Source: Candidatus Jordarchaeia archaeon (lineage in GTDB: Archaea > Asgardarchaeota > Jordiarchaeia > Jordiarchaeales > Jordiarchaeaceae). Taken from it: a DNA stretch of 10,046 nt. The position numbers were made by a program, and so were the translations under genes. The DNA is taken from assembly GCA_029856435.1 (NCBI GenBank), contig JAHQXB010000153.1, forward strand, positions 1-10,046. The letters run 5' to 3'. Within the stretch, counting starts at the first letter, position 1. Each line of letters opens with the position of its first letter. Below, in pieces: positions 386 through 10,046 of the stretch. The notes beneath the pieces were generated by a model. That model did not search any database and had not been told where the DNA came from. It saw only the letters and a list, made by a program, of their open reading frames with translations.

Positions 386-501
386 GTTAATTTCAAATGT
401 ACTTGATTTATAATAAACGTCTTATAATTTCTATGTGGTTGAGGCTCGCCTCGTATTAAATAAGTATTGTAGCTCTGTCAATCTATAAAGGGATGTTATT
501 T

Positions 502-1995
502 ATGTCAAAGTGGCCATTCATTGCTGGTGACTATGTTGTTATAAACGAAAAGGCGGCCATCGCCATAGTTACATGTGGGTCTTACGATTTGCCAAAAGAG
601 TTAGCCAAATTGAGTGACAAAATTGCCATTGTGGGTTTCTGTGAGACGGAGAATAGTGGAGTAGCGAAGATTTTACAAAATTTGGCTTCAAATACAAATA
701 TTAGATTCCTCATAGTCTGCGGTGAACGTGTAGTTGGCCATGAACCGGGGCAAACTATTATTTCGCTCTATAATAATGGGATTGATGAAAATTATAGAAT
801 TATCGGAAGTGAGGGTACTATACCTGTTTTGCATCCAAATTATTTCAGGGGAGACGATCCGAATAAATTTGTTAAAAGATTTCAAAGCCAAATCGTTAAG
901 GTGGTGGATGCACGAGGAGAAACAAATGTTCAAAAATTGATGTCTATAATCAATGAACTTAATGCACAAAAAATATCTCCATTTCCTGAGGAGCCGATCC
1001 TTCCATTAACACCCAAAGTTGAATATGATTGGAGTAAAGGGATAAAGAGGTTCCAAGAAGAAAATAAAAGCTTTCTTGATAAGGGTATATCTCTATTAAA
1101 TCCCTTGATATTTACTGGAGAACTAAGAGTTTATGATATATGTGGGATTAAGATAGGCGGGCAGAGGGGGGAGTATCCCGTAGTTTTAGCTGGAACCATG
1201 TTTTATAGAGGAGATAAATTGGTGGTTAATCATAGTGAAGGCGTCTTTGATAAGACTAAGGCTGAAGATCAAATTCGGAAACAGGAGGAGAATTCTTTAA
1301 AATACGAAATTCCCTCAATGGTACACATAGTTGGAGAAACTCCTGAGGCTTTAACAAGATATCTTTTATTTGTTGCAGATATCACAGACTCACCAATAAT
1401 TCTTGATTCGCCAGTTTTGGAAGCGAGAATAGAAGCAATGGGTGTAGCTAAAGATCTGGGTTTAGAGGGTAGAGTTATATACAATTCGGTTAGCGGCGTG
1501 GATAAAAGAGAAAAGGCTATGATTGGCGAAATGGGATGTATAGAATATTCTATAGTTTTGCCCTTTGACGTAAAACTACCTTCAAGAATCAATCGGTTCA
1601 GAGAAATAATTGAATTTATGAAGGGGTTAATCATGAAGCCAATTATTGATCCTGGTGTTTCTATTCTGGGAGCAGGTTCAATAAGTGCTTTGCATGCAGC
1701 TTGGTTATTTAAGAATTGCTATGGTTATCCTGTATGTATTGGCATCCATAATCTGCAATCAAGGCTCTCTAAGAGTATCAGTGAATTAAAAAATCTGGAT
1801 TTTTCTTTTGACTACGCTCTTCCTTCCCTTTATGGAATAGATATTAATCTTTATGGTCCAATAAAAAATGCAGAGGCTATATTCAGAGAGGTGGCGGCTG
1901 TTGAAGCTGCAATTGCAGACGAGAACATAAATACAGTTGGGATTTACCCGAAGCCTCCCCATCCCTATTATGCTTTAAAACTTGGTTGTGAGTAA
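502..1995 (+). CDS. mtrA-mtrH: Fusion of an MtrA-like corrinoid-binding domain and an MtrH-like methyl-pterin methyltransferase domain; soluble, no transmembrane anchor (MtxA/MtxH-like)
   Basis: The N-terminal part matches MtrA motifs: WPFIAGDYVV, AIVGFCETENSG, SNTNIRFLIVCG, VVGHEPGQ (His codon 739-741), IIGSEGTIP. From about nt 1108 it matches MtrH: KIGGQRGEYPVVLAGTMFY, GVFDKTKAE, SPIILDS, GIHN, LYGPIKNA, and C-terminal HPYYAL. The alternative ATG is at 493; ATG 502 has AAGGGA 8 nt upstream. Confidence 0.92.
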   Translation: MSKWPFIAGDYVVINEKAAIAIVTCGSYDLPKELAKLSDKIAIVGFCETENSGVAKILQNLASNTNIRFLIVCGERVVGHEPGQTIISLYNNGIDENYRIIGSEGTIPVLHPNYFRGDDPNKFVKRFQSQIVKVVDARGETNVQKLMSIINELNAQKISPFPEEPILPLTPKVEYDWSKGIKRFQEENKSFLDKGISLLNPLIFTGELRVYDICGIKIGGQRGEYPVVLAGTMFYRGDKLVVNHSEGVFDKTKAEDQIRKQEENSLKYEIPSMVHIVGETPEALTRYLLFVADITDSPIILDSPVLEARIEAMGVAKDLGLEGRVIYNSVSGVDKREKAMIGEMGCIEYSIVLPFDVKLPSRINRFREIIEFMKGLIMKPIIDPGVSILGAGSISALHAAWLFKNCYGYPVCIGIHNLQSRLSKSISELKNLDFSFDYALPSLYGIDINLYGPIKNAEAIFREVAAVEAAIADENINTVGIYPKPPHPYYALKLGCE

Positions 1996-1996
1996 A

Positions 1997-3271
1997 ATGA
2001 GCTTCTATGGTCCTTATTTGATTCGAGCCAGAAATATAGATGTTGCTTGGAGAAGTTGCATTAACACAATCCTCGAAAAAGGAATAAAGGAGATAACTGA
2101 GGATAAAAAACAGGAAACTAGGGAAACTTTTTGTGCTACGATTCATCTAAGTGATTGGCAAAGTGGAAATTTTGTTCCAGTAAACTATATTGGGCTGAGT
2201 AAGGATACGCTCCTTGAGAGCTATATTCCCCAATATATTAGTCCTGAGAAGGGAGAACATGTATATAGCTATGGATGGGCTATGAGAAAAAGATTCACGT
2301 TTAACCAGCTGGATTACATTAAAAATCAGTTAAGTGGTGGGAAAAATGTAGCTTTTGCCCAGTTCTGGAATCCACCAACGGACATTTTAAGCACCAACCC
2401 TCCCTGTATTAACATAGTGCTTTTTCACAAATTAGGCTCAAAAATTCATTCGACTATATATATTAGAAGTAATGATATGGCCCGAGCGTATCCCGACGAT
2501 GTTGCTGGTATTTATACGGTTTTTTTAACAGAAGTTGCAAGTAGATTTGGTGGTAAAAGGGCTTTGGGCACCATAACAACAATTTCGGGGTCGGCGCACA
2601 TATATGAAACTTCAATTAATGAATTAAGACAAAGCTTTTTCGGTTCGCTACCTACCTCCAATTCTAATCCACGAATCAATAATGAGAACTTGGCTGGACC
2701 CATACTTTTAAGATCTCAAAATTTGCGTGAGGTGTTATCGGAATTAGAATACAAGTTTGCAAAGTACTCGGAGCCTCAAGAAGAAGGGCAATTTTACTTA
2801 TATCTCGGGTTTAAGTTAGAGAAAGTAGACGTTAAATTAGTAGAGCTTGAACATCAAGTAGAAGGAATTTTAAATGGAGAGGGGGAATTAGGAAAATGTC
2901 TGAGATTCTACAAAGCTAAAACGGATGAGGGGGAATCTGTTACAATCGATCAAATAAAAATGGCTAAAAGAAAATTAGAGGAATCAAAGCTGAGTAGAAG
3001 AATAGTTATTACTCCTAATAATCCTTGGGAAAAAAAATATGATTTAAACCCTCTGGTTATACAATTTTTGGTAAGGCAGGGACGGCTTTTCACATCGGCG
3101 TTTTTCGCAAACTACTCAATTGAACAAGTCCCATTGGGAATCTTTTTAATTAGAGCAATTCAAAAGGAGATACTGAATGGAAATAAAATCAGTATAGATC
3201 CTACTGCGTTCTTCTTTATGCCCTGTATAAATGACTCAAGGAGTGTAAAGTTCTCAGATATACTCAGTTAA
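1997..3271 (+). CDS. Thymidylate synthase (ThyA)/pyrimidine hydroxymethylase-family protein with two tandem TS folds; domain 1 catalytic-looking, domain 2 degenerate
   Basis: Domain 1 has YSYGWAMR, NQLDYI, FWNP, NPPC (Cys codon 2405-2407), RSND (2465-2476) and SAHIYE. Domain 2 (from about 2696) has GPILLRSQN, LGKCLRFY, IDQI, SRRIVIT and IQFLVRQGRL. ATG 1997 sits 1 nt after the upstream TAA and is preferred over the TTG at 1982 in the ORF track. Confidence 0.85.
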   Translation: MSFYGPYLIRARNIDVAWRSCINTILEKGIKEITEDKKQETRETFCATIHLSDWQSGNFVPVNYIGLSKDTLLESYIPQYISPEKGEHVYSYGWAMRKRFTFNQLDYIKNQLSGGKNVAFAQFWNPPTDILSTNPPCINIVLFHKLGSKIHSTIYIRSNDMARAYPDDVAGIYTVFLTEVASRFGGKRALGTITTISGSAHIYETSINELRQSFFGSLPTSNSNPRINNENLAGPILLRSQNLREVLSELEYKFAKYSEPQEEGQFYLYLGFKLEKVDVKLVELEHQVEGILNGEGELGKCLRFYKAKTDEGESVTIDQIKMAKRKLEESKLSRRIVITPNNPWEKKYDLNPLVIQFLVRQGRLFTSAFFANYSIEQVPLGIFLIRAIQKEILNGNKISIDPTAFFFMPCINDSRSVKFSDILS

Positions 3272-3514
3272 GGGTGAAACATTTTAGAAAAGCGCCCTGC
3301 ATAAATAAATAAAGAATTTTGACTTGTACTTTCTTTTAATGATTGTGAAAAGCACTGTTGGTTAAGGATATATTTAAAAAAAATGTTAGGATATCGTGAA
3401 TATATATAAGTTATGCTTAATAAAAGATATAAACTGCGTAGTGGATACATTATTATTGCTATGTGTGAGATTGGTATTTCTAGTATTCAGTTTATTCATA
3501 GGTGTTATAAAATA

Positions 3515-3521
3515 AGGAGGT
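3515..3521 (+). promoter_or_regulatory. Shine-Dalgarno site of psmA
   Basis: AGGAGGT 9 nt upstream of ATG 3531. A TATA-like TATATATAAG at 3401-3410 in the AT-rich intergenic region is a possible promoter. Confidence 0.7.
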
Positions 3522-3530
3522 AGAAGTGTA

Positions 3531-4262
3531 ATGTTTGCTGCTCCTGGATTGGGCTATGATCGCGCTATAACCATTTTCTCCCCAGATGGGAGGCTTTTTC
3601 AGGTGGAGTACGCAATTGAAGCCGTACGTCGAGGCACCACCGCTATTGGTGTAAGATGTAAAGAGGGCGTGGTGCTTGCAGTAGAGAAGAGGGTTTTAGC
3701 CCTTCAAGACCCCGAGAGTGTAGAAAAAATTTTTGTCATTGATGAGCATATTGGAACCGCCATCGCGGGATTAACAGCTGATGCACGAGTTCTTGTAAAT
3801 CAAGCTAGGATTCAGGCCCAAGTTAACCGTCTCACATACGATGAGCCTATTACTGTTGAAAGTTTAACCAGATACATTGGTGACACTAAACAAATGTATA
3901 CTCAGCATGCTGGCGTTAGACCGTTCGGAGTTTCCTTTCTGATAGCAGGTGTAGATGAACTGGGTCCCAAATTATTTATGACCGATCCTTCTGGGACTTA
4001 CTGGTCTTATTGGGCAGCCGCAATAGGTAGTGGTTCTCAGGCCGCTAAAGAAGTTCTGGAAAAAGAGTATAAGAAAGATATGGGGCTTGAGGATTCTATT
4101 AAACTATCTCTCAAGGCTTTAAATCAGGTGTTAGAGTCTGAACTTGATCCCTCAAAAGTTGAAGTTGCGGTGGTGGATGTTAAATCGAGAATTTTCAGGA
4201 GACTGTCCTCTAGCGAAGTTCAAAGTTATATCAATGAGGTTAGAAAGTCTGGTGGAAGTTAG
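3531..4262 (+). CDS. psmA: 20S proteasome subunit alpha
   Basis: Alpha-subunit signature [21 protein letters not shown], plus [25 protein letters not shown] and DPSG; 243 aa. Confidence 0.98.
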
Positions 4263-4273
4263 GACTGATAGTT

Positions 4274-4996
4274 ATGTCTGACATTCGGGGAGCGAAATGG
4301 GTCGATTTAGGTGATACAGTAATAGCCCGCTACGAATCCCATGGAGAAAGGTTTGAGATCCTTGTTGACCCTAACAAGGCTTGGGATTTTCGCCGCGGTA
4401 AGAATATTGATTTATCAGAGATATTGAAAAGCTTTGATATATTTGAAGACGCCCATAAAGGCCTTAAAGCATCCGAAGATAAACTGCTTAAAGTGTTTGA
4501 AACATTAGATATAAATAAAATTGCGCCTATCATACTAAAGAAAGGGTTTATACAACTCACTACTGAACAGCGCAGAGAGATGATGAACAACAAAAAATTG
4601 CAGATAATTAATATTCTTGCCCGTAACTGTATTAACCCCCAGACTGGACTCCCCCATCCTCCAGCAAGAATAGAACGCGCCATGGAGGAAGCAAAGGTTC
4701 AAATTGACTTGTGGAGAAGCCCCGAAGAGCAAGCAAAAGACATATTAAAAATACTTCAGCCAATAATACCTATAAGAATGGAACTCTTAAAACTGGCTGT
4801 CAAGTTTCCACCTGATTTTTCAGGTAAGGGATATAGCATCGTGGAACGTTTCGGAACAGTCACCAAACAAGAATGGCAAAGTGACGGCTCATGGATTGCC
4901 CAATTGGAGATTCCTGCAGGGCTTAGAGGCAAATTTGTAGAAACAATAAATAATCAAACTAAGGGTAAAGCACAAGTGACATTTATCAAAGAATAA
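4274..4996 (+). CDS. sdo1: Ribosome maturation factor SBDS/Sdo1
   Basis: [55 protein letters not shown] and IPAGL; canonical position after psmA. Confidence 0.96.
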
Positions 4997-5009
4997 AGGG
5001 GGTTTCTTT

Positions 5010-5687
5010 TTGACATTATATTTTAAAAATAGACAAATTGTAGTACCCGGCGAGTTACTCGCAGAGGGAGGTTATAAGCCTGGCGAAGGTACGTTTAGGG
5101 AAGGAAATTGTATCTACTCTTCTGTAGTAGGCTTGGTAGAGGCGAAGGGCAAAATTGTGCAAGTTGTTGCTTTTGAAGGAGCGTACATTCCAAAAGTTGG
5201 TGATGTGGTTATTGGAAAGGTAATAGATGTAAAGATGACTTCATGGAGAATTGACATAAATTCACCATACCAAGCTACAATGCATCCAGTAAACATTTTT
5301 GAAAGGCGTACGGATCCGTTGAAAGAAGACCTTCGCCGGTATTTTGATGTAGGAGATACACTGGTTGCGAAGATAATGGCATTTGATCGGACGCGGGCGC
5401 CTCTGCTTACCACAAAAGAACGGGGGCTTGGCAAACTTCAAGGAGGATACTTAGTAAATATTTTACCCACGAAGATTCCGCGTTTAATCGGGCGGAAGGG
5501 TTCAATGATAAATATGATTAAAAAGGAAACAGGGTGTCAGATTGTTATTGGTCAGAATGGTGTTGTTTGGGTTTCCGGAAAGAGTTTCGAAGACGAGGAG
5601 AGGGTTATTAAAGCTATAAGACAGATTGAGCGGGAGGCCCATACCTCTGGCTTAACTGATAGAGTAAGGGAGTTAATTCATAAGTAA
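5010..5687 (+). CDS. rrp4: Exosome RNA-binding subunit Rrp4 (S1 + KH domains)
   Basis: IVVPGELLA, YIPKVGDVVIGKV, KH motif PTKIPRLIGRKGSMI, GQNGVVW and C-terminal AHTSGLTDRV. TTG start with AGGGGG upstream. Confidence 0.96.
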   Translation: MTLYFKNRQIVVPGELLAEGGYKPGEGTFREGNCIYSSVVGLVEAKGKIVQVVAFEGAYIPKVGDVVIGKVIDVKMTSWRIDINSPYQATMHPVNIFERRTDPLKEDLRRYFDVGDTLVAKIMAFDRTRAPLLTTKERGLGKLQGGYLVNILPTKIPRLIGRKGSMINMIKKETGCQIVIGQNGVVWVSGKSFEDEERVIKAIRQIEREAHTSGLTDRVRELIHK

Positions 5688-5705
5688 ATCTTGTTGGTGG
5701 TCGTT

Positions 5706-6482
5706 ATGGAAGATTTTCATTTTCCTTCGCAGATAAAGTTACTAAATGAAGACAATTTGAGACTTGATGGAAGAAGATTGGATGAACTTCGACCCATTAA
5801 ACTAGAAGTCGGAGTTCTGGCAAGAGCAGATGGCTCTGCGTACATTGAACAGGGAAAAAGTAAGATTCTCGCAGCAGTTTATGGTCCGCGGGAATTACAC
5901 CCACGCCACCTTGCACAACCTGATGAGGCTCTACTACAGTGTATTTATAGAATGGCTACCTTTTCTGTAGAGGAAAGAAAGAGCCCAGCGCCGTCTCGGA
6001 GAGAAACAGAACTTTCAAAAGTTATAACAGAGGCTCTTGCTCCCGCAGTTTTTCTAAAATACTATCCTAGAGCGTCCATAGATGTTTATATACAAGTAAT
6101 ACAAGCCGATGGAGGTACTAGATGTTCAAGTATAACCGCCGCTTCCCTAGCCTTAGCGGACGCTGGAATTCCCTTGCGGGACTTGGTATCTGCTGTTGCC
6201 GCTGGAAAGATAGATGGTAAAATTGCTCTGGATTTAAGTGATTTGGAAGATAAGAACGGCCAGGCGGACTTGCCTGTTGCTATAATGCCTCGCAAAGGGC
6301 TAACTACACTATTACAGATGGATGGTATGATGACCAGAGAGGAATTCATCGAAGCCTACGAACTGGCTGTAAAGGGTTGCCAAAAGATTTACGAAATGCA
6401 AAGGGAAATCTTAATCCAAAAATATATTGATATCCAAAGTGAGGCTTCAGAGGAAGCAGATGAACAGGAAAATGGGGGATAA
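5706..6482 (+). CDS. rrp41: Exosome catalytic subunit Rrp41 (RNase PH fold)
   Basis: [40 protein letters not shown] and DGGTR phosphate/RNA-binding motifs, and the acidic EDKNGQAD motif are intact. ATG 5706 (GGTGGT upstream) is preferred over TTG 5691. Confidence 0.97.
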
Positions 6483-6485
6483 AAA

Positions 6486-7307
6486 ATGCCTCATAGTCTT
6501 ATCTCTGAAATTGAATCAAAGTATATTAGGTCAATTGTAGCTAGAGAAAAGAGGGTGGACGGCCGTGGATTAAGAGAGGTACGTCCGATAACTATTGAAA
6601 CGGGAGTGGTGGAGAAGGCCAGTGGCTCTGCTAGGGTAACTATTGGTAACACAAAGGTTATCGTGGGGGTAAGTGCAGAAATTGGAACCCCCTACCCCGA
6701 TACTCCCAATTCGGGTGTCGTAACTGTTGCTGCAGAGTTTATACCAATGGCTTCTCCCTATTTTGAATCAGGACCGCCCAGCGAAGAAGCTGTCGAACTT
6801 GCAAGGGTTGTCGATAGGGGTATCCGTGAATCTAAAATGGTAGATTTGGACAAACTCTGCATAATTCCCAATGAAAAGGTTTGGATTCTTTTCGTGGACA
6901 TATACATAATTGATCACGGTGGGAATCTATTTGACGCTTCTTCTCTAGCTGGCGTTTGTGCTTTAATTACCACTATGCTTCCAAAAACCGAAATTGAAAA
7001 TGGAAAGGTAAAATTGCTAAGTGAAAAAATGCCATTACCTGTGACCAATATACCAGTTTCATTGACCCTCGCAAAAATAGGTGACCAACTCTGTGTGGAT
7101 CCCATAGAAGAGGAAGAAAATGTTATGGATTGTAGAATTACCATTGTTTATGATGCGAACGGTAACCTAGTAGCTATTCAAAAAGGAGAGCGTGGAGCCC
7201 TAACCCAACAAGATATTTACAACGCCGTAGATATAGCTAGGGATATTACAAAAGAACTTAGAGAAAAATATATTTTACCAATTTTAAAGAGGCAGGAGGT
7301 CTCATAA
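6486..7307 (+). CDS. rrp42: Exosome subunit Rrp42
   Basis: RVDGRGLREVRP, KASGSARV, PYPDTPNSG, FESGPPSEEAVELARVVDRGIRES, DHGGNLFDAS and VDPIEEEE. Confidence 0.97.
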   Translation: MPHSLISEIESKYIRSIVAREKRVDGRGLREVRPITIETGVVEKASGSARVTIGNTKVIVGVSAEIGTPYPDTPNSGVVTVAAEFIPMASPYFESGPPSEEAVELARVVDRGIRESKMVDLDKLCIIPNEKVWILFVDIYIIDHGGNLFDASSLAGVCALITTMLPKTEIENGKVKLLSEKMPLPVTNIPVSLTLAKIGDQLCVDPIEEEENVMDCRITIVYDANGNLVAIQKGERGALTQQDIYNAVDIARDITKELREKYILPILKRQEVS

Positions 7308-7597
7308 TGCCGAGAACTAAGAAGGTAGGTATTACTGGTAGGTTTGGAGCAAGATATGGTACAAAGGTGAGAAAGCGTGTGAAAACTATCTTGGAGGGAC
7401 TGAGTACCTTTCATAAATGCCCCCGGTGTGCAACTAAAGCAGTTAAACGAGTGTCTACTGGAGTATGGTCATGCAGAAAATGTGGACATACCTTTACTGG
7501 TGGAGCTTATCTTCCAGAAACTCCTCTAGGCAAGGAAAAAAGACATATCATAGACACAGTTGCGTTAAGCTCGGAGAAAAATAAGCCACCACAATAA
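7307..7597 (+). CDS. rpl37ae: 50S ribosomal protein L37ae (eL43)
   Basis: RTKKVGITGRFGARYG, zinc ribbon CPRC...WSCRKC, and FTGGAY. It overlaps the rrp42 stop by 1 nt (TAATG). Confidence 0.96.
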   Translation: MPRTKKVGITGRFGARYGTKVRKRVKTILEGLSTFHKCPRCATKAVKRVSTGVWSCRKCGHTFTGGAYLPETPLGKEKRHIIDTVALSSEKNKPPQ

Positions 7598-7767
7598 ATT
7601 TTTCCTATCCTCATAAATATTTGATGCCCCTTCTAGCTTTAGTCTACATAAAAAGGATACAAAAAAGAACATTTTCTATCGAAAATAGGATATTGATTAA
7701 AAATTGTAACAATTTGAGATTACCGATATTTTAGGGCGAGGCGCAAAAAGTATTTGGAGTAAATTTA

Positions 7768-8013
7768 ATGAAATACAATGCAAAAGGCGTTATACAAATT
7801 AATTTGCCTAGGAATTTATTGGAAGTTGCTTTCAGAGCTCTTTTTCCTGAAGTTATTTCCGGTGCTAGCGAGCGTTGTATAGGTAAATTAAAAAGAGATG
7901 GTGACATTATAAGCTTAGAAATTAAGGCTGAGGATACGGTTGCGCTCAGAGCGGCTTTAAACTCGTATCTCAGATGGTTAAAAATAATTTATGACATTAA
8001 CGAACTTGTTTAG
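7768..8013 (+). CDS. pcc1: KEOPS complex subunit Pcc1
   Basis: 81 aa, with ALFPE and the C-terminal IKAEDTVALRAALNSYLRWL signature; usual position before prefoldin beta. Confidence 0.9.
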   Translation: MKYNAKGVIQINLPRNLLEVAFRALFPEVISGASERCIGKLKRDGDIISLEIKAEDTVALRAALNSYLRWLKIIYDINELV

Positions 8014-8024
8014 GAGGCGTGTAG

Positions 8025-8393
8025 TTGTCAGGAAATGAAATTCCCCCACAGGTTCAACATCAAATATCAATGCTGCAGCAATTGCAACAAAAATTGGAAA
8101 TAATTATCACTCAAAGGTCTCAATCTGAAATGCAGTTGAGGGAAACAGAACAGGCTTTAAGTGAACTTGAAAAAATTGAGCAGGGAAGCAGTGTTTACAA
8201 AATGGTTGGAACGTTACTGATAAAAACCCAACCCGAAAAGGTTAAGGAAGAACTTCGGGATAAAAAGGAAACACTTGAATTAAGGGTAAAAACTCTTCAG
8301 AGACAGGAAGAGCGTTCAAGGAAGCAGCTGGAGGAGATGCGGGCAAAGGTTCAGGAATCGCTTCAGCAACGAGGTTTAAGCCCGGCGGGCTAA
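8025..8393 (+). CDS. pfdB: Prefoldin beta subunit
   Basis: EIPPQVQHQI, coiled-coil helices flanking the VYKMVGTLLIK hairpin, and KETLELRVKTLQRQE. TTG start with AGGAGG at 8012-8017. Confidence 0.96.
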   Translation: MSGNEIPPQVQHQISMLQQLQQKLEIIITQRSQSEMQLRETEQALSELEKIEQGSSVYKMVGTLLIKTQPEKVKEELRDKKETLELRVKTLQRQEERSRKQLEEMRAKVQESLQQRGLSPAG

Positions 8394-9813: not shown

Positions 9814-10046
9814 CTATATAGGCATAGGTAGGTATGCGTTAGCATACCTGCTGTATGCGTAGTGGAGCTGAGGCTTCACAACGTCATATAGCTCCCTCAC
9901 GAGTTCATAGGGAGCCTTCTGCTCGCCCCTGTCTGGAAGCACCCGCCCACAAGAGTCGGGAGGATGTTTTTGTCCCACAATCCCCTCTCGTGGGGAACTC
10001 CCTCCATCTTCAGGTACAGGTTGATTGCAGCGTTCAATTGCCTGTC
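9814..10046 (-). mobile_element. tnpB: 3' end of a tnpB-like gene (IS200/IS605/IS607 family RNA-guided nuclease family), truncated by the window edge, with a probable frameshifted tail
   Basis: The minus-strand frame from 10046 reads DRQLNAAINLYLKMEG..., matching the TnpB C-terminal DRDxNAAxNI motif. This frame stops at 9899-9897; a second frame runs from about 9924 to TAG at 9816-9814. GC is about 56% over 9841-10020, clearly above the AT-rich host DNA next to it. Confidence 0.75.
9830..9849. repeat. Perfect 8-bp hairpin at the tnpB 3' end (candidate omega/reRNA stem or IS right-end hairpin)
   Basis: AGGTATGC (9830-9837), loop GTTA, GCATACCT (9842-9849). Confidence 0.6.

Follow-up and report, generated by a model that had tools for sequence, protein, structure and literature searches.

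A tandem ThyA gene in a Candidatus Jordarchaeia archaeon probably encodes a single-chain pseudo-heterodimer with one active site per polypeptide

Introduction

Thymidylate synthase (TS) of the ThyA type is among the best-studied enzymes, and serves in textbooks as the example of an obligate homodimer whose active sites are shared between subunits and whose half-the-sites reactivity is debated. In canonical ThyA, a loop carrying R126 and R127 of one protomer binds the phosphate of deoxyuridine monophosphate (dUMP) in the active site of the other protomer (PMC5981203). For the same structural reason, an engineered E. coli TS heterodimer composed of wild-type and R126E-R127E subunits has exactly one functional site (PMC5981203), and half-the-sites activity has also been addressed by the mixing of inactive mutants (Maley et al. 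1995, as cited in PMC5981203). Here we describe a gene for two ThyA folds in tandem, found at positions 1997..3271 (+) of a 10,046-nucleotide stretch of DNA (hereafter the window; positions 1 to 10,046 of contig JAHQXB010000153.1, assembly GCA_029856435.1) from Candidatus Jordarchaeia archaeon, a member of the Asgardarchaeota. We estimate a probability of roughly 0.75 that the product of this gene is a single-chain ThyA-fold pseudo-heterodimer with one active site per polypeptide, and that it serves as the thymidylate synthase of the organism.

Canonical ThyA proteins (E. coli, L. casei and human; PF00303, EC 2.1.1.45) have the same fold as both halves of the tandem protein, and the same catalytic residues as its first half. 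They are built from two equivalent chains with two sites, whereas the tandem protein is one chain with unequal halves, one site predicted to be competent, and an Asp in place of Asn177. Unlike E. coli ThyA, both tandem domains are of the short archaeal type that lacks the segment after E. coli residue 225. The closest sequence relatives of both halves are the short single-domain archaeal ThyA proteins (TIGR03283), which share this short architecture but hold Cys, RSxD, HxY, SRR and Asn177 all in one domain of 200-240 amino acids (aa). In the engineered one-site heterodimers of E. coli TS, the Arg pair comes from one protomer and the rest of the site from the other, as is proposed here for the two halves of a single polypeptide. 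However, the engineered proteins are laboratory two-chain constructs that re-assort, whereas the tandem ThyA is natural, covalently linked and fixed in several Asgard lineages.

The retention of an inter-subunit site after duplication or fusion, with degeneration of the symmetry-related site, is known from the monomeric herpesvirus dUTPase and from the C1/C2 domains of mammalian adenylyl cyclase. These proteins follow the same evolutionary logic as the tandem ThyA, but their folds and chemistries are unrelated and the comparison is an analogy only. Our search of the literature turned up no account of a ThyA that is naturally tandem, pseudo-dimeric or fused, and a 2023 study of Asgard ThyA and ThyX makes no mention of tandem, fusion, Jord or Njord (PMC9931769). 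In databases, the tandem proteins are named simply ‘thymidylate synthase’ or ‘hypothetical protein’.

Results and Discussion

One gene with two ThyA-like halves

The tandem gene encodes 424 aa followed by a stop codon, as read from its open reading frame (ORF) and translation. The enclosing open frame extends from 1982 to 3271 (+), and the ATG at position 1997 is the most likely start because it lies one base after the upstream TAA stop and because the same first residues are found in all homologues. The whole protein matches PF00303 with 43.1 bits (gathering cut-off 24.3), and the methanogen-type ThyA equivalog TIGR03283 matches it in two stretches. The closest homologues are labelled Jord- or Freyarchaeia.

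An earlier note on this DNA, made from the letters alone, had proposed that a duplicated ThyA keeps the cis catalytic elements in its first half and the Arg pair, which acts in trans in ThyA dimers, in its second. A script run on the translation (1997-3268) placed all of the motifs listed in that note exactly at the positions given for them. The two halves indeed begin alike, with GPYLIRARN at aa 5-13 (2009-2035) and GPILLRSQN at aa 234-242 (2696-2722), and the Ser/Asn/Pro-rich linker of about 20 aa that had been noticed between them is found at aa 214-233 (2636..2695, +). This linker is without secondary structure, in that DSSP assigns no helix or strand between residues 214 and 235 of the predicted model, and its predicted local distance difference test (pLDDT) values are 75-81. 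The length and sequence of the linker differ among homologues, yet a linker is kept in all of them.

Domain 1 retains the catalytic residues and lacks the Arg pair

Domain 1 (aa 1-213; 1997..2635, +) is a catalytic ThyA fold without the Arg pair. Residues 1-226 match TIGR03283 end to end (E 1e-27, profile positions 2-200 of 201), and the N half alone scores 32.0 bits on PF00303, which is above the cut-off. When the model was compared with structures of the TS family, residues ~4-224 superposed over about 200 aa at 1.8-2.7 Å (VIA Z 19-22), and Foldseek recovered the TS fold with an E of about 1e-12. Alignment of the domain 1 profile to that of single-domain Asgard ThyA by hhalign yields an E of 1.4e-28.

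The nucleophile is assigned to Cys137 (codon 2405..2407, +), which corresponds to E. coli C146 and lies in an invariant PPC motif. Residues R157-S158-N159-D160 (RSND; 2465..2476, +) are aligned by both HMMER and MAFFT with E. coli R166, S167 and D169, and the R, S and D are invariant. The same is true of the H and Y of H201-I-Y203 (HIY; 2597..2605, +), which correspond to E. coli H207 and Y209, and of Y92, the counterpart of E. coli Y94. In place of the canonical D-P-x-S-R-R, however, domain 1 carries an SGGKN loop (aa 113-117; 2333..2347, +) whose sequence is variable across the family. The MAFFT alignment leaves a two-residue gap in domain 1 opposite E. coli R126 and R127, and no homologue has an Arg pair there. 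Thus, both the alignment to E. coli ThyA and the pattern of invariance agree with the initial observation that domain 1 keeps Cys, RSND and HIY but has SGGKN where SRR is expected.

Domain 2 is a degenerate ThyA fold that retains the SRR motif

Domain 2 (aa 234-424; 2696..3268, +) is a degenerate ThyA fold from which the catalytic Cys has been lost. It carries S333-R334-R335 (SRR; 2993..3001, +), which HMMER matches to the SRR of solved TS proteins and which corresponds to E. coli S125, R126 and R127. Downstream, an NPL segment (aa 351-353; 3047..3055, +) places Leu353 (3053..3055, +) close to where the catalytic Cys would be. The C146 column of the MAFFT alignment holds the next residue, Val354, and is V, I or L in every homologue and never Cys.

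The proposal of a pseudo-dimer hinged on whether the C half adopts a TS fold, and structure comparisons with Foldseek and VIA as well as profile matches indicate that it does. A model of the C half alone (pLDDT 91.8; predicted template modelling score, pTM, 0.89) was matched by Foldseek to TS proteins in all of the top positions (E ~3e-7, probability 1.00). In the VIA comparison, 177-180 of its 194 aa superposed on TS chains at 3.0 Å (Z 15-16), a span equivalent to residues 1-225 of E. coli TS. The C half scanned alone is matched, weakly, by five different TS models and by hardly any other model. A profile built from 13 C halves retrieves, among all PDB sequences, thymidylate synthases only, and always on the IDQ...P-x-SRR-I-x-x-x-x-NP segment. 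When searched against 1.8 billion representatives, the same profile finds PF00303 proteins outside its own family at E 3.5e-6 to 1e-3, including single-domain ThyA, a fusion of dihydrofolate reductase (DHFR) and TS, and an MtrA-ThyA-DUF4346 protein. Comparison of domain 2 with single-domain Asgard ThyA by hhalign gives a probability of 96.5% and an E of 9.5e-10 over 164 columns. Judged from its sequence, domain 2 is homologous to ThyA and is predicted to be catalytically dead.

Besides SRR, the invariant residues of domain 2 are G234, P235, Q319, P343, Q356, L358 and R360, which sit in TS core motifs or are without a known role. Q356, L358 and R360 (aa 356-360, 3062-3076) are not matched by conserved residues in domain 1.

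The complementary motif pattern is conserved across the family

For motif transfer, E. coli ThyA (NC_000913.3), the N halves, the C halves and single-domain Asgard ThyA proteins were aligned together with MAFFT. Every N half has the equivalents of Y94, C146, R166, S167, D169, H207 and Y209, together with the gap at R126/R127. Every C half has kept R126/R127 and lost the Cys, and its remaining catalytic positions are variable. Single-domain Asgard ThyA proteins carry the complete set within one domain. The homologues, which span 41-95% identity and several Asgard lineages, all show this same complementary pattern (32 of 32), which is therefore not a matter of chance.

The two domains differ in how tightly they are constrained. 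In the alignment of 32 sequences, 48 of the 213 positions of domain 1 are invariant (mean pairwise identity 61%), compared with 10 of 179 for domain 2 (39%), where SRR accounts for three of the ten. The earlier note had described domain 2 as having kept SRR and as having lost Cys, RSxD and HxY. The first part of this description extends to the whole family, as SRR is invariant in 32/32 homologues, and so does the loss of the Cys; the loss of RSxD is less complete, as an Arg is back at the R166 column in several homologues.

The same layout is present in two distant tandem relatives. P0054 (28% identity) carries Cys, RSND and HxY in its first half and TRR in its second, and P0055 shows the same match to TS in two stretches. 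Stand-alone versions of either half were also sought, both among shorter homologues and with the C-half profile against the 1.8 billion representatives, and no convincing two-gene form was found. The short pieces that these searches returned (P0048, which bears the source label partial, and P0049, P0050, P0051 and P0053) look like fragments at contig ends.

A proposed single-chain pseudo-dimer

A full-length AlphaFold2 model, computed for a single chain from the alignment of 32 homologues, is compact and has a mean pLDDT of 92.8 and a pTM of 0.93. For a chain of two domains, a pTM this high suggests one definite orientation of the domains relative to each other in the AlphaFold prediction. The folds, the profile matches, the 32/32 conservation and the compact model together uphold the central claim made for this gene at the outset, which is that two ThyA folds are present in one chain, with the catalytic set in the first and the trans Arg pair in the second.

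From these findings we infer a dimer-like packing of the two domains, the reach of R334 and R335 into the domain-1 site, the use of dUMP as the substrate, and the nature of the one-carbon (C1) donor. Domain 1 would supply the nucleophile Cys137 and the cis substrate-binding residues R157, S158, D160, Y92, H201 and Y203. Domain 2 would pack on domain 1 in the manner of the partner subunit in a canonical ThyA dimer, such that its R334 and R335 could hold the 5'-phosphate of a nucleotide bound in the site of domain 1. Because the pterin-binding Asp, D160, is invariant, a methylene-pterin is the most likely C1 donor, and its supply may somehow be linked to an MtrA-MtrH protein that is presumably co-transcribed with the tandem ThyA. 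An intramolecular pseudo-dimer is the most economical reading of the data.

If this reading is correct, a natural and fixed single-chain ThyA with one site would demonstrate that a dimer needs only one site in vivo. Studies of mechanism, for which engineered heterodimers that re-assort have been needed so far, would also gain an asymmetric TS provided by nature. Furthermore, Jord-/Freyarchaeia, Sif-, Borr-, Atabey- and Njordarchaeia-type genomes would be marked by an unusual thymidylate route. Combined with an Asn-to-Asp change and a conserved MtrA-MtrH partner, this would turn the matter of which C1 donor and which nucleotide make thymine into a tractable question.

Thymidylate supply in the genome and its relatives

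The tandem gene is the only PF00303 match in its genome (3.54 Mb, 97.8% complete), and ThyX was not found in this genome. In a survey of 150 Asgard genomes, most of those that bear the tandem gene have no other ThyA-type match, and three single-contig genomes are among them. No ThyX was found in five other tandem-bearing genomes that were checked, which include these three. Two genomes of the same genus (G047, C121:10178-10759; G082, C536:2249-2836) hold a second, single-domain ThyA-type match of 111-115 bits. The usual archaeal source of dUMP is dCTP deaminase (Dcd), which is present in this genome and in five of five tandem-bearing relatives. As the tandem protein is the sole ThyA, ThyX is not found and dCTP deaminase is present, we read the tandem protein as a working thymidylate synthase.

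Several observations weigh against the reading of the tandem protein as a one-site pseudo-dimer that makes thymidylate. The TIGR03283 score of the tandem protein (113.9 bits) is below the curated cut-off of 174.55, whereas single-domain Asgard ThyA proteins score 195-228 bits on the same model. There is no significant direct similarity between the N half and the C half: BLASTP finds only the GPxLxR start (E 0.13), and hhalign of the two half-profiles yields E values of 0.19-0.24, such that the internal repeat becomes visible only via third-party TS profiles and structure. DHFR was not found, which leaves the recycling of an oxidised pterin unexplained. Finally, Asn177, one of the residues that define uracil binding, is an Asp throughout the family.

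Asp168 and the identity of the substrate

Asp168 (codon 2498..2500, +) occupies the position of E. coli Asn177, which discriminates between uracil and cytosine, as judged both from HMMER alignment to a solved TS protein and from MAFFT. It is invariant in 32/32 homologues and is likewise an Asp in P0054. The residue before it is always acidic as well (D/E-D). The single-domain Asgard ThyA proteins and the MtrA-ThyA-DUF4346 fusions that were examined have Asn at this position.

This residue suggests that a protein of the same architecture might act on deoxycytidine monophosphate (dCMP) or CMP rather than on dUMP, and that it might catalyse C5-methylation or hydroxymethylation. In that case, thymidine monophosphate (dTMP) would come from a subsequent deamination, unless the product has some other use. 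We regard this possibility as unlikely, although it has support beyond the invariance of Asp168 in the family and the Asn seen at this position in the other ThyA forms examined. By structure, both halves match the phage dCMP hydroxylase AfhB (9iqu) best, and the next match of domain 1 is the CMP hydroxymethylase MilA (5b6e). The PDB entries 1njc and 1nja, connected with work on L. casei TS N229D, are also among the structural matches. In addition, the N229D substitution in L. casei TS reportedly turned a canonical enzyme into a dCMP methylase, with its specificity moved to dCMP. The tandem ThyA thus shares an Asp at the Asn177 position with the cytosine-specific members of the TS superfamily (T4 dCMP hydroxymethylase, MilA, AfhB and L. 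casei N229D). However, no specific sequence relationship to these enzymes was found, and none of them is a tandem protein.

Domain 1 is nearest by sequence to ordinary TS, and its top phmmer matches in the PDB are ordinary TS proteins rather than dCMP hydroxymethylases. The genomic context likewise favours dUMP. Given a sole ThyA and no ThyX found in its own genome and in three closed relatives, dTMP has to come from the tandem protein or from salvage, and dCTP deaminase, which opens the route to dUMP, is present in all of them. A dCMP/cytidine deaminase (PF00383) was found neither in this genome nor in three of five relatives, including both closed Atabeyarchaeia genomes. A route to dTMP via 5-methyl-dCMP and dCMP deaminase would therefore be without a consistent deaminase.

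The MtrA-MtrH neighbour and a possible corrinoid route

Directly upstream of the tandem gene lies a gene for an MtrA-MtrH fusion (493..1995, +; PF04208 2.1e-37, PF02007 5.7e-58), whose stop is one base before the ThyA start. An MtrA-MtrH gene is found in this position in 16 of 16 related loci (L002-L017), which derive from Frey-/Jord-, Sif-, Borr- and Atabeyarchaeia-type genomes and have downstream genes in common only among close relatives. The tandem architecture is not strictly dependent on this neighbour, because the gene for P0054 (L051:5001-6251), which is flanked on its archaeal contig by desulfoferrodoxin on one side and ribosomal S19/L22 genes on the other, has no adjoining MtrAH. A paper on the Asgard MtrAH fusion gives the fate of its methyl group as unknown and never mentions thymidylate (PMC11291895). 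We found no paper in the literature that joins thymidylate synthase with MtrA and MtrH.

The conserved neighbour raises the speculative and rather improbable idea that the tandem ThyA and a co-transcribed MtrA-MtrH constitute a cobamide-dependent system for pyrimidine C5-methylation, in which the presumably dead domain 2 also docks MtrA. If so, MtrH would pass a methyl group from methyl-tetrahydromethanopterin (methyl-H4MPT) or methyl-folate to the corrinoid of MtrA, and Michael-addition chemistry at Cys137 would transfer this methyl straight to dUMP (or to dCMP, in view of Asp168). Because this route would oxidise no pterin, dihydrofolate reductase would not be needed. Against it, the invariant pterin-binding D160 argues for a classical methylene-pterin donor. 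The docking of a corrinoid domain at the dead site, which had been suggested in the earlier note, is neither supported nor excluded by our data: the conserved MtrAH neighbour is the single observation in its favour, and the residues lining the dead domain-2 pocket are not conserved in the alignment.

A different type of protein combines MtrA-like, ThyA and PterinBD-DUF4346 domains. Such proteins are found in two Asgard genomes (L042:994-2328 (+) and L043:1186-2619 (-)) and in DPANN- and CPR-labelled bins. Examples are P0042, P0044, P0047 and P0060, of which P0044 also carries a thymidylate kinase domain. These triple-domain fusions are a second, independent physical link of MtrA-like domains to archaeal ThyA. 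As with the tandem ThyA, a short archaeal ThyA is tied to an MtrA-like domain, which is fused in these proteins, whereas MtrA-MtrH is encoded by the adjacent gene in the tandem case. The fusions also differ from the tandem ThyA in having a single ThyA domain with the Asn discriminator and no second TS fold. The RR pair is kept in three of the four MtrA-ThyA-DUF4346 sequences that were read (P0042 is without it), and no [SQDG]RR motif was found in the Asgard loci L042 and L043.

Alternative roles for domain 2

The same chemistry could in principle be achieved by pairing between chains, as in a domain-swapped homodimer with two sites per dimer or in a chain-like oligomer. Canonical ThyA is obligately dimeric, either topology would be compatible with a flexible linker of about 20 aa, and AlphaFold2 was run on a single chain and so could not reveal swapping. 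We nevertheless consider pairing between chains to be very improbable. A compact single-chain model with a pTM of 0.93 and a linker pLDDT of 75-81 would be unexpected if the domains could not pair within the chain, and the linker, however variable in length, is present in all homologues.

In another view, domain 2 would be an appendage with a structural or regulatory function, or the platform on which MtrA-MtrH docks. Its SRR would then be conserved for some purpose other than phosphate binding in trans, and domain 1 would bind the phosphate itself, perhaps as an N-N homodimer. This view can draw on the invariant Q356, L358 and R360, which have no counterpart in the TS mechanism, and on the MtrAH neighbour in 16/16 loci, but it is the least probable of all. 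The single catalytic motif of TS that domain 2 has kept is precisely the one that domain 1 lacks, and it lies within the same IDQ...SRR...NP context as in a real TS. Neither site of an N-N homodimer would have an Arg pair. In addition, the unconserved residues of the dead pocket are a poor fit to a specific ligand or docking site, and the divergent tandem gene of P0054 has no adjoining MtrAH.

Selection on the two halves and their origin

Comparison of close to moderately close relatives gave ratios of nonsynonymous to synonymous substitution rates (dN/dS) of 0.04-0.10 in domain 1 and 0.12-0.29 in domain 2. Purifying selection acts on both halves, and the second domain is maintained rather than decaying. 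In a phylogenetic tree, the N halves form one clade (support 98) and the C halves form another (support 87), with matching internal branching order. The presence of two clades with the same branching order indicates that the halves were joined once, before the lineages split, and that they have been co-evolving since.

The N and C halves are not sisters in this tree, and the approximately unbiased (AU) test does not reject a single clade (p 0.42). Origin by internal duplication and origin by fusion of two paralogues are both possible. Duplication is mildly favoured because both halves start with an invariant Gly-Pro that is absent from the single-domain forms.

A further Asgard ThyA form and the remainder of the window

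A third form of Asgard ThyA was observed at four loci (L044-L047), with open frames of 333-360 aa in which SRR, Cys and Asn are kept. The TIGR03283 match of this form spans approximately 900 nucleotides, owing to an insertion of about 100 aa between the Y94 region and the IDQ/SRR helix.

A search of the ESM Atlas returned generic TS clusters only and no structure for the tandem protein, and neither the Rfam scan nor the tRNA scan of the window gave a hit. Downstream of the tandem gene, an archaeal cluster encodes proteasome-alpha, SBDS, Rrp4, Rrp41, Rrp42, L37ae and prefoldin (3531-8393). An AT-rich spacer of approximately 260 base pairs with T-runs (3272-3530) separates the MtrAH-ThyA pair from this proteasome-alpha/exosome cluster, and the two genes probably form a transcription unit of their own. 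The right edge of the window (9814-10046) contains open-ended ORFs on both strands.

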